Below are positions 42,470-43,287 of a stretch of 64,000 nt of DNA, piece by piece. The stretch covers positions 46,651 to 110,650 of the forward strand of contig CAVZOB010000011.1 of the NCBI GenBank assembly GCA_963776835.1, written 5' to 3'. The number at the start of each line of letters is the position of its first letter. The first letter of the stretch is position 1. Position numbers and translations under genes: made by a program. This DNA is from an uncultured Pseudomonadota bacterium (GTDB taxonomy: Bacteria; Desulfobacterota; Desulfobulbia; Desulfobulbales; Desulfocapsaceae). Below the pieces are notes generated by a model that was not told where the DNA came from, ran no database searches, and saw only the letters and a list, made by a program, of their open reading frames with translations.

Positions 42470-42829
42470 ATGAGTGATGAGAAAGAAGTTATAGGGCAGA
42501 CAAGCCTGGAAGTTCTGGCAGGAAACGCACCAGACCTCTCAACCATTGCTTTTTTATCAAAAACACTTGCCGACGAAAATCGGCTACGCATTCTGCTGTC
42601 ATTACGAGCGGGAGAAAAATCAGTCTCAGTTGTTGCTGGGGAGCTTGAACTTTCGCAGCCCCTTATCTCACATCATCTGAAAGAATTACGCAGAGCTCTC
42701 CTGGTGAAGGTTGAACGAAGAGGGCCATTTGTGTATTACTCAATTTCTGATCCCCGCATCTTGGACATTATGGATAGCCTTCGTCACGTCGGGAAAGAGT
42801 TGCTCGCCACACAAACCATATTCAAATGA
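42470..42829 (+). CDS. ArsR/SmtB-family transcriptional regulator
   Basis: The HTH region is LADENRLRILLSL...VSVVAGELELSQPLISHHLKELRRALLV. Confidence 0.9.
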   Translation: MSDEKEVIGQTSLEVLAGNAPDLSTIAFLSKTLADENRLRILLSLRAGEKSVSVVAGELELSQPLISHHLKELRRALLVKVERRGPFVYYSISDPRILDIMDSLRHVGKELLATQTIFK

Positions 42830-43287
42830 GTATCAATATGTCTGATCTTACAACTATGATAACTACCATGGAACCAGCGGAGGCGGTACGGCAACTGAAA
42901 CCTCTACTCAAAAATCTTCTGCCTCACCTCGACAAGGAAGAACGTTTATCCTTCATTGCATCCCTGTCCGGTGATCCCGACGACGACAAAACAACAAGTC
43001 TCGTCCACCTCTGACTGGCTGAATGCATGGACGAAGGTGTCGATCCAACAAAAATGTGTCAGAGTTTGGTGCATAAGGTAGCGCAGTCGAAACAGCTTAT
43101 GGCGGTCACCGACCCTGCTCTTTTAGTGCTGTTTGAATCCTGGCTTGATGAGCTGGAATATGAGGCGCTCAGCTTTATGAAACAGCACCCCGAGGCCAGT
43201 GCTGTTGACCTGACGGACAATCTCGGGTTGTCACGAAGCGGTGCTGCCTTTGTCCTTGCAAAACTCGCTCGGGAAGGAAGGCTCTAG
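42826..43287 (+). CDS. Candidate selenoprotein (153 aa if TGA 43012-43014 is read as Sec); otherwise two small ORFs
   Basis: ORFs 42826-43014 and 43027-43287 are in the same frame and separated only by TGA plus four sense codons (L-A-E-C). The second ORF has no RBS. A SECIS-like hairpin lies 13 nt after the TGA. The ATG overlaps the arsR stop (ATGA), and Sec-selD is the next gene. Confidence 0.45.
43028..43047 (+). promoter_or_regulatory. Candidate SECIS hairpin
   Basis: TGGACGA-AGGTG-TCG(A)TCCA is a 7-bp stem with one bulged A and a GGU-containing loop. It starts 13 nt after TGA 43012-43014. Confidence 0.4.

Follow-up and report, generated by a model that had tools for sequence, protein, structure and literature searches.

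Does a TGA that separates two short open reading frames (ORFs) in an uncultured member of the Desulfocapsaceae end a gene, or does it encode selenocysteine (Sec) inside one? The two ORFs lie between positions 42826 and 43287 of a 64,000-nt stretch of contig CAVZOB010000011.1 (the window, to which all coordinates below refer), directly behind a gene for an ArsR-type regulator. A first-pass annotation had proposed that they form one unannotated selenoprotein. Our analysis favors a single gene, with a probability of roughly 0.88: the interval 42826/42838-43287 would be tsoA of the Tso system, with its UGA read as Sec. The protein is thus a selenoprotein, as proposed, and it is not an unannotated one; tsoA is a member of a family already known, since the family was published in 2025 and NCBI maintains a curated equivalog model of it. 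TsoA, TsoB, TsoC, TsoX and TsoY are listed in a 2026 review, which expands Tso as three selenoprotein operon and credits the system to Haft & Tolstoy (2025, mSystems 10:e0141724; via review PMC13188914).

An in-frame UGA inside tsoA

As the first-pass annotation had described, the ORF that opens at 42826 stops at TGA 43012-43014, and a second ORF, 43027-43287, follows in the same frame after CTG GCT GAA TGC, with no GGAG-like motif before its ATG and with TAG (43285-43287) as its stop. Reading through the TGA yields the predicted protein of 153 amino acids (aa; 149 aa if translation starts at the ATG at 42838), which contains ...SLVHL-U-LAEC-MDEGVDP... (junction peptide SLVHL-U-LAECMDEGVDPTK) and thus has a Cys four residues after Sec. 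In our NCBIfam searches the TsoA read-through protein was scored with U written as C, and the curated equivalog cutoffs were used. The full-length protein matched NF045695, "LULAXC motif selenoprotein TsoA", at 206.3 bits (E 2.3e-61; cutoff 170), the match spanning residues 9-151 of the protein and positions 2-144 of the 144 in the model. It carries the exact L-U-L-A-x-C signature of the known family, as L62-U63-L64-A65-E66-C67 at 43009-43026, where U63 is encoded by the in-frame TGA at 43012-14 and Cys67 by 43024-43026.

To compare homologues we scanned one genome per species, which gave 63 loci, all from Desulfobacterota and mostly from metagenome-assembled genomes; these loci and the window supply 64 distinct coding sequences (CDS), and one locus, L024, has two tsoA copies. 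The Sec codon is TGA in 64/64 CDS, and a Cys codon, TAA or TAG occurs there in none. The tblastn alignment crosses the TGA in all 63 genome loci with no frame shift between the two halves. Among the 64 CDS the Leu-Ala-Glu-Cys that follows the TGA shows synonymous changes only, except in two sequences (one Ile, one Ser), and within this linker four Ala codons occur among homologues, as do both codons of Glu and of Cys. Because the amino acids are kept while the nucleotides drift synonymously, the comparison points to translation in this frame across the junction: the linker LAEC is, on this evidence, under protein-level selection, and the UGA is selected as a sense codon. The motif as a whole admits the minor variants L-to-R, L-to-I and A-to-S. 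Cys78, in a P-x-x-M-C-Q motif at 43057-43059, is invariant as well; it is Cys in 64/64 sequences, with TGT and TGC both used, so that TsoA has an invariant chalcogen set U63-x3-C67-x10-C78. No other stop codon is used in the homologues, and the two halves do not behave as independently evolving genes.

Public databases present the family mostly in pieces. Some protein entries are N-terminal fragments of 58-60 aa that end one residue short of the Sec position, others are C-terminal fragments that begin at Met68 or Met77, and the few full-length proteins have W at the Sec position, from translation of the TGA as Trp. For a Logan contig identical to this locus, automatic gene calling gives ORFs of 62 aa and 86 aa. 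We rejected a pseudogene, or nonsense mutation, because the TGA is universal in homologues, and an alternative genetic code, given that tsoR ends in TGA and that the TGA of selD sits in a conserved Sec/Cys site. This site lies in the N-terminal G-U-x-x-K-I motif of SelD, which we take to be the position of the catalytic residue in both Sec- and Cys-type enzymes.

The start of tsoA is less simple than it first seemed. The window offers ATGs 62 and 58 codons before Sec, at 42826, where an ATGA overlaps the tsoR stop (42827-42829), and at 42838, 8 nt after that stop; neither has a Shine-Dalgarno (SD) motif. In homologues the conserved ATG stands 58 or 60 codons ahead of Sec and some 15-25 nt downstream of the tsoR stop, and 60/65 junctions show an SD-like motif, whereas the junction in the window is compressed and lacks one. 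Because homologues conserve an ATG at the position of 42838, we consider this probably the start, on alignment evidence, rather than the ATGA overlap. The overlap on which the first-pass annotation based translational coupling does exist at 42826; its role as a conserved start probably does not hold. As tsoA in the window has no SD motif of its own, re-initiation after tsoR, which would couple the two genes in translation, is a plausible mechanism in this genome. Such coupling is not a feature of the family.

The hairpin behind the UGA

Bacteria decode UGA as Sec through SelB, which brings Sec-tRNA(Sec) and is recruited by a hairpin in the mRNA, the Sec insertion sequence (SECIS). In tsoA the sequence UGGACGA-AGGUG-UCGAUCCA, at 43028-43047, forms a hairpin in the minimum free energy fold (-7.1 kcal/mol), with a 7-bp stem, in which a single bulged A separates 3 bp from 4 bp, and a 5-nt loop, AGGUG, at 43035-43039. 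Folding bore out two points of the first-pass annotation: the hairpin begins 13 nt after the TGA, exactly as the 8-bp selD hairpin at 43464-43483 begins 13 nt after its own UGA, and its loop, A-G-G-U-G, contains GGU. Acting as a SECIS, the element would bind SelB with Sec-tRNA(Sec) at the UGA and so direct the insertion of Sec63.

The consensus model of bacterial SECIS elements (bSECIS) by Zhang & Gladyshev, in the summary given in PMC13188914, calls for a stem of 4 bp or more that carries a 3-9-nt apical loop, a G in the first or second loop position, usually followed by G or U, and a UGA-to-loop distance of 16-37 nt. The tsoA hairpin agrees with it in loop size, stem, loop G and distance, having a small loop with G in second position followed by G-U, and 20 nt (43015-43034) between UGA and loop. 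Like the Escherichia coli fdhF-type bSECIS it is a stem-loop within the coding region, directly 3' of the UGA; unlike that element its stem is short, bulged and of low stability (-7.1 kcal/mol), and its sequence is unrelated to fdhF. A further difference from bSECIS elements is that the tsoA hairpin is frozen across the family instead of co-varying, and no Rfam model matches it.

This freezing exceeds what the encoded protein requires. Over the 90 nt around the TGA there are 62 distinct sequences, and every one contains ATGGACGAAGGTGTCGATCC unchanged. Codons 69-73 (GAC GAA GGT GTC GAT) are nucleotide-identical in 64/64 CDS, and the CCA codon of the hairpin is 94% fixed. As a control we took the 26 degenerate codons elsewhere in tsoA with an amino acid conserved to 95% or more: 5/6 hairpin codons are monomorphic as against 0/26 of these, a difference with a hypergeometric probability of ~3e-5, to be read as an indication only, the sequences being related. 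Because monomorphic codons occur only there, this codon comparison places selection at the RNA level in the hairpin alone. In a divergent clade of paralogues, described below, a hairpin of 7 bp lies equally far from the UGA, the loops being GGUG and CGGUGU and the upper stems GGAUUC(A)/(U)GAAUCC where the main clade has GGA-CGA/UCG-A-UCC. Conservation of the hairpin had been put forward as a check on the proposal, and it was found in homologues, beyond coding constraint. The curated model, the universal TGA, selection on the linker and conservation of the hairpin thus all agree with the original idea of a single Sec protein made by read-through.

Several observations weigh against this conclusion. 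The folding energy of the hairpin is indistinguishable from that of dinucleotide shuffles (z -0.6 to +0.8), and because it is unremarkable the case for read-through rests on the comparison of homologues. Rfam searches returned no SECIS or other relevant family, either at gathering thresholds over the whole window or at E<=10 on 42400-45700, and the main clade shows no classical covariation, its hairpin being invariant. Homologues aligned at the Sec position, by which the first-pass annotation had hoped to be judged, all have TGA (64/64 CDS); a Cys form of TsoA was found neither among the 120 word-indexed matches listed and the 63 genome loci nor in the 21 full-length or nearly full-length sequences among the 150 profile-search matches listed. 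Selenoprotein families that have no Cys-containing homologue are unusual. Because the Cys form was not found, TsoA appears obligatorily Sec-containing in the sequences examined. Met68, encoded by the ATG at 43027, is invariant in homologues, and a separately initiated C-terminal product from this position may exist as a minor species. Finally, the support for Sec insertion at UGA 43012-14 is strong and of a comparative kind, and the biochemistry is what we infer from it.

TsoA, TsoR and the genes around them

The first-pass annotation had seen a winged helix in the last 60 residues of the protein. Pfam gives HTH_24 at 19.6 bits (cutoff 21.9) and MarR at 16.7 bits (cutoff 24.6), both below threshold. 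AlphaFold2 (AF2) models the C-terminal half of the window protein as all-helical, with a predicted local distance difference test score (pLDDT) of 85.5 that rises to 93-95 over the last 50 residues; a full-length homologue, P0001, is also all-helical, at a pLDDT of 68, so that the N-terminal part is predicted to be helical too. Foldseek places the three C-terminal helices on the cores of winged helix-turn-helix (HTH) domains with a root-mean-square deviation of 0.9-1.4 A over 41-46 columns, the best matches being Zalpha, Lrp/AsnC, DeoR and FtsK-gamma at probabilities of 0.99-1.0 and E-values of only 0.08-1. For both AF2 models it found local matches to the HTH core only, and none at E 0.001. 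Neither model contains a strand that could form a beta-hairpin wing, and there is no room for one, with only 4-5 residues left beyond helix 3. The predicted fold is therefore clearly that of a three-helix HTH core (residues 107-151, 43144-43278), and of the two parts of the earlier description the core stood and the wing did not. The last ~45 residues superpose on the core of the winged-helix domains named above, and they differ from those domains in being wingless and acidic, in scoring below the Pfam gathering threshold and in having no significant Foldseek E-value. The family is acidic throughout: the median isoelectric point (pI) is 4.6 for complete proteins and 4.9 when the last 50 aa are taken alone. 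Because it is wingless and acidic, autonomous DNA binding by TsoA is unlikely. A search of sequences in the Protein Data Bank (PDB) gave only a short resemblance, between residues 32-54 (42919-42987, LPHLDKEERLSFIASLSGDPDDD) and the second helix of the Z-domain of staphylococcal protein A; with weak per-domain E-values, and with repeats swelling the score of the whole sequence, we judged it to be probably chance.

Two further sets of relatives deserve mention. Met-rich proteins (P0164, P0167, P0205, P0217, P0222 and others) share ~85 residues of the TsoA C-terminus, including Cys78 and the HTH core, with the common motifs P-M-E-M-C..., ATPE-x-R-x-LFEEW and K-I-S-x-E-S-A-x-Y-F-x-x-K-L-A-x-x-G-K-I. 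They differ from TsoA in having no Sec or Cys at the positions of U63 and C67, in carrying N-terminal MSxEEKKEMM repeats, and in extending past helix 3, possibly as a wing; Pfam lists no separate family for them, and with 56-80 bits against NF045695 they fall below the cutoff and are not TsoA. The second set is a divergent pair of TsoR/TsoA-like paralogues, with 29-34% identity, at L047 2831-3935 (-) and L065 237-746. Their motifs are Y-U-INE-C (L047, 2831-3142 (-)) and H-U-IQT-C (L065/P0142); Ser replaces Cys78, and the C-terminus extends past helix 3.

All genes of the Tso cluster lie on the + strand. The regulator gene upstream of tsoA, at 42470-42829, encodes a protein of 119 aa of the ArsR/SmtB family (Pfam HTH_5) that matched NF045707, "ArsR/SmtB-type metalloregulator TsoR", with 140.5 bits against a cutoff of 115. 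It stands directly upstream of tsoA in 62/63 loci. In an alignment of 61 TsoR sequences no column has Cys in more than 16/61, and 29/61 copies have no Cys at all; the only conserved His residues are those of the SHHL motif in the recognition helix, and neither an alpha3/alpha3N Cys, nor an alpha5 Asp/His site, nor the BigR/SqrR Cys pair is present. TsoR is basic (median pI 9.1), in contrast to acidic TsoA. BigR and SqrR are persulfide sensors that respond through two Cys residues inside the repressor itself. TsoR gives a sub-threshold match to the BigR model NF040642 (43 bits), and the pair TsoR-TsoA resembles these systems by analogy in that an ArsR/SmtB repressor stands beside sulfur genes, a TauE-type permease among them; it differs in that TsoR lacks conserved Cys and the conserved Sec63, Cys67 and Cys78 reside on a separate protein, TsoA.

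Upstream of tsoR, an imperfect inverted repeat at 42371-42398, CAATATATTAAC-GTCT-GTTTATATGTTG, lies 9 nt after a TTGACA box (42356-42361). The consensus CATATAAAC-N(3-6)-GTTTATATG is found upstream of homologous tsoR genes, with ATATAAA/TTTATAT words in 37/50 loci, and the repeat directly follows a TTGACA box in L010, L034, L045, L061, L063 and others as well. By this conservation the repeat is a likely, candidate operator for TsoR. A palindrome at 42356-42373 was also considered and was dropped in favor of the conserved repeat.

Downstream of tsoA the window departs from the known Tso system, which it otherwise resembles in having TsoR directly upstream, TsoC in the cluster and a host in the Desulfobacterota. 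TsoB, a double selenoprotein and rhodanese-DsbD-thioredoxin fusion with the motif FY-U-AGLT-U-VR that follows tsoA in ~30 loci, was not found by tblastn anywhere in the 64-kb window, and about half of the homologous loci lack an adjacent TsoB. In its place, between tsoA and tsoC, are selD and a gene for a TauE/SafE-family membrane protein. The selD gene (selenide, water dikinase; 43397-44449; TIGR00476, 347.5 bits against a cutoff of 125) starts after a 109-nt gap with an SD-like AGGAGG before it, and has its Sec in TCG-U-AAKIGP (TGA 43448-43450). The membrane protein gene is at 44436-45239 (Pfam PF01925, E 8.4e-39). The tsoC gene, at 45284-45604, encodes an NEPxGxxU selenoprotein beginning MIKIHFFM-NEPNGGP-U-...; it is split by a TGA (45329-45331), the listed ORF 45347-45604 (85 aa) extending through it to the ATG at 45284. 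The read-through protein matched NF045708 with 136.3 bits against a cutoff of 45, and a hairpin with a GGU loop lies at 45348-45368. The arrangement tsoA-selD-tauE occurs in 4/63 loci, and the full order tsoR-tsoA-selD-tauE-tsoC recurs only in L012; L003 and L050 have tsoA-selD-tauE with tsoC not detected, and L015 has tsoC before selD. Counted by locus, the downstream neighbors are TsoC (44), TsoB (~30), DsrE-like proteins (15), a DedA-like membrane protein (15), a TsoX/ArsM-like methyltransferase (10), SQR-like proteins (8), TauE (6), SelD (5), TusE/DsrC (5), a GcvH-related protein (5) and TsoY (4).

Four further observations concern this neighborhood or the flanking DNA. In L034 (Thermodesulfobacteriota bacterium B35), at ~6510-7500, tsoA is followed by a pair of DsrE-like genes, of which one contains an in-frame TGA (LIV-U-GVCLK), and then by an SQR-like flavoprotein gene, another selenoprotein-rich variant of the neighborhood. 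In the window, two tandem XerC/XerD-like tyrosine recombinase genes lie after tsoC at 46294-48292 (-), with ~690 bp of apparently non-coding DNA between, and the Tso cluster may have a mobile element at its border. At 38839-40954 (-) the GlgX glycogen debranching enzyme is split into overlapping ORFs in different frames, covering model positions 4-298 and 297-667; this is a frameshift, from either a pseudogene or a sequencing error. At 49509-51842 (-) an ORF of 777 aa fuses a CysK/CysM-type cysteine synthase (1-297) to a CysS cysteinyl-tRNA ligase (309-770).

What TsoA might do

Because TsoR lacks a conserved Cys/His sensing site, we propose TsoA as its partner, and this is our preferred reading of function, held tentatively. 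The tsoA gene would be cotranscribed with tsoR, probably from an autoregulated promoter with the conserved inverted repeat; TsoA would supply selenol/thiol chemistry for sensing or transduction to the Cys-less TsoR, and the pair would govern sulfur, selenium and metalloid genes that differ from locus to locus, here selD, tauE and tsoC. We set this partner role no higher than a reasonable possibility. Many ArsR-family proteins that have no Cys act without a partner. In the model of P0001 the region around Sec has a pLDDT <50, so the spacing of U63, C67 and C78 cannot be read from it. The neighbors TsoB, TsoC and DsrE-like proteins fit a role in carriage or relay equally well.

Such a role is the strongest of the alternatives, and we consider it rather unlikely, in a range that still commands attention. 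TsoA would then be a selenoprotein carrier or redox relay and not a regulatory partner: U63, C67 and C78 would pass a chalcogen or metalloid (persulfide, selenide/perselenide or As(III)) to or from TsoB, thioredoxin-like TsoC, DsrE-like proteins or SelD, with the HTH-like module serving for docking or as a scaffold. The neighbors are mostly relay or metalloid enzymes (TsoC, TsoB, DsrE-like, TusE/DsrC, SQR-like, ArsM-like/TsoX and SelD), which speaks for this role, as do the three invariant chalcogen residues, the acidic and wingless character that makes DNA binding improbable, and the metal-binding appearance of the Met-rich N-termini in the remote relatives of the C-terminal module. Yet TsoA accompanies TsoR far more faithfully (62/63 loci) than it does any putative relay partner, TsoB is absent from the window, and no recognizable carrier fold was found by PDB sequence search or Foldseek.

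The partnership of TsoA with TsoR can also be put more specifically, in a form we regard as unlikely: TsoA would act in trans as the sensory subunit of an ArsR-type switch made of two proteins, and its own synthesis would be gated by selenium through the UGA. Sec63 and Cys67, perhaps with Cys78, would react with selenium, sulfur or metalloid species, upon which the acidic HTH-like module would bind or release basic TsoR at the CATATAAAC-N-GTTTATATG operator. Parts of this idea may already have been proposed by Haft & Tolstoy (2025).

A different kind of regulation, additional to the other roles and not exclusive of them, would make the UGA and hairpin mainly a selenium-responsive translational gate. 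When Sec-tRNA(Sec) is scarce, ribosomes would terminate at 43012-14 and make less full-length TsoA, perhaps with altered expression of downstream selD-tauE-tsoC, so that the operon would be coupled to selenium status. The position of tsoA directly upstream of Sec-dependent selD in the window, L003, L012 and L050 (with tsoC between the two in L015) suits this idea, and TsoA production appears obligatorily selenium-dependent because no Cys variant was found in the sequences examined. The argument is, however, purely inferential; translation of selD need not depend on that of tsoA, given the 109-nt gap and the SD-like AGGAGG, and in most loci selD is not adjacent to tsoA. We hold a gate of this kind to be improbable.

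That the TGA is a genuine stop between two genes, one for a 62-aa N-terminal protein and one for an 86-aa HTH protein from ATG 43027, is very hard to sustain: gene callers do split the locus in this way, most database entries among the matches listed are such fragments, Met68 is invariant and the hairpin energy is unremarkable, but the stop is always TGA and never TAA or TAG, the four codons between the ORFs are kept as amino acids under synonymous drift, ATG 43027 lacks an SD motif, the halves stay in frame in 63 loci, synonymous sites are frozen exactly over the hairpin, the full-length protein passes the curated equivalog model, and the operon includes a Sec-containing SelD.

Some of what is described here may already be contained in Haft & Tolstoy (2025): the frozen SECIS, obligate Sec and Cys-less TsoR, and likewise the SelD-TauE variant without TsoB, the candidate operator and the Met-rich relatives.

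For genome annotation the locus is a textbook example: standard gene callers cut this selenoprotein gene into hypothetical ORFs of 62 and 86 aa, and databases represent the family mainly by fragments or by entries in which the UGA wrongly appears as Trp. A reading of sequence alone can nonetheless recover a genuine recoding event. TsoA heads variable, selenoprotein-rich islands for the handling of sulfur, selenium and metalloids. If it is indeed a partner of the regulator TsoR, it would tie transcriptional control to recoding and to selenium status, and if the two-protein switch is real, TsoA would be the first selenoprotein known in transcriptional control.

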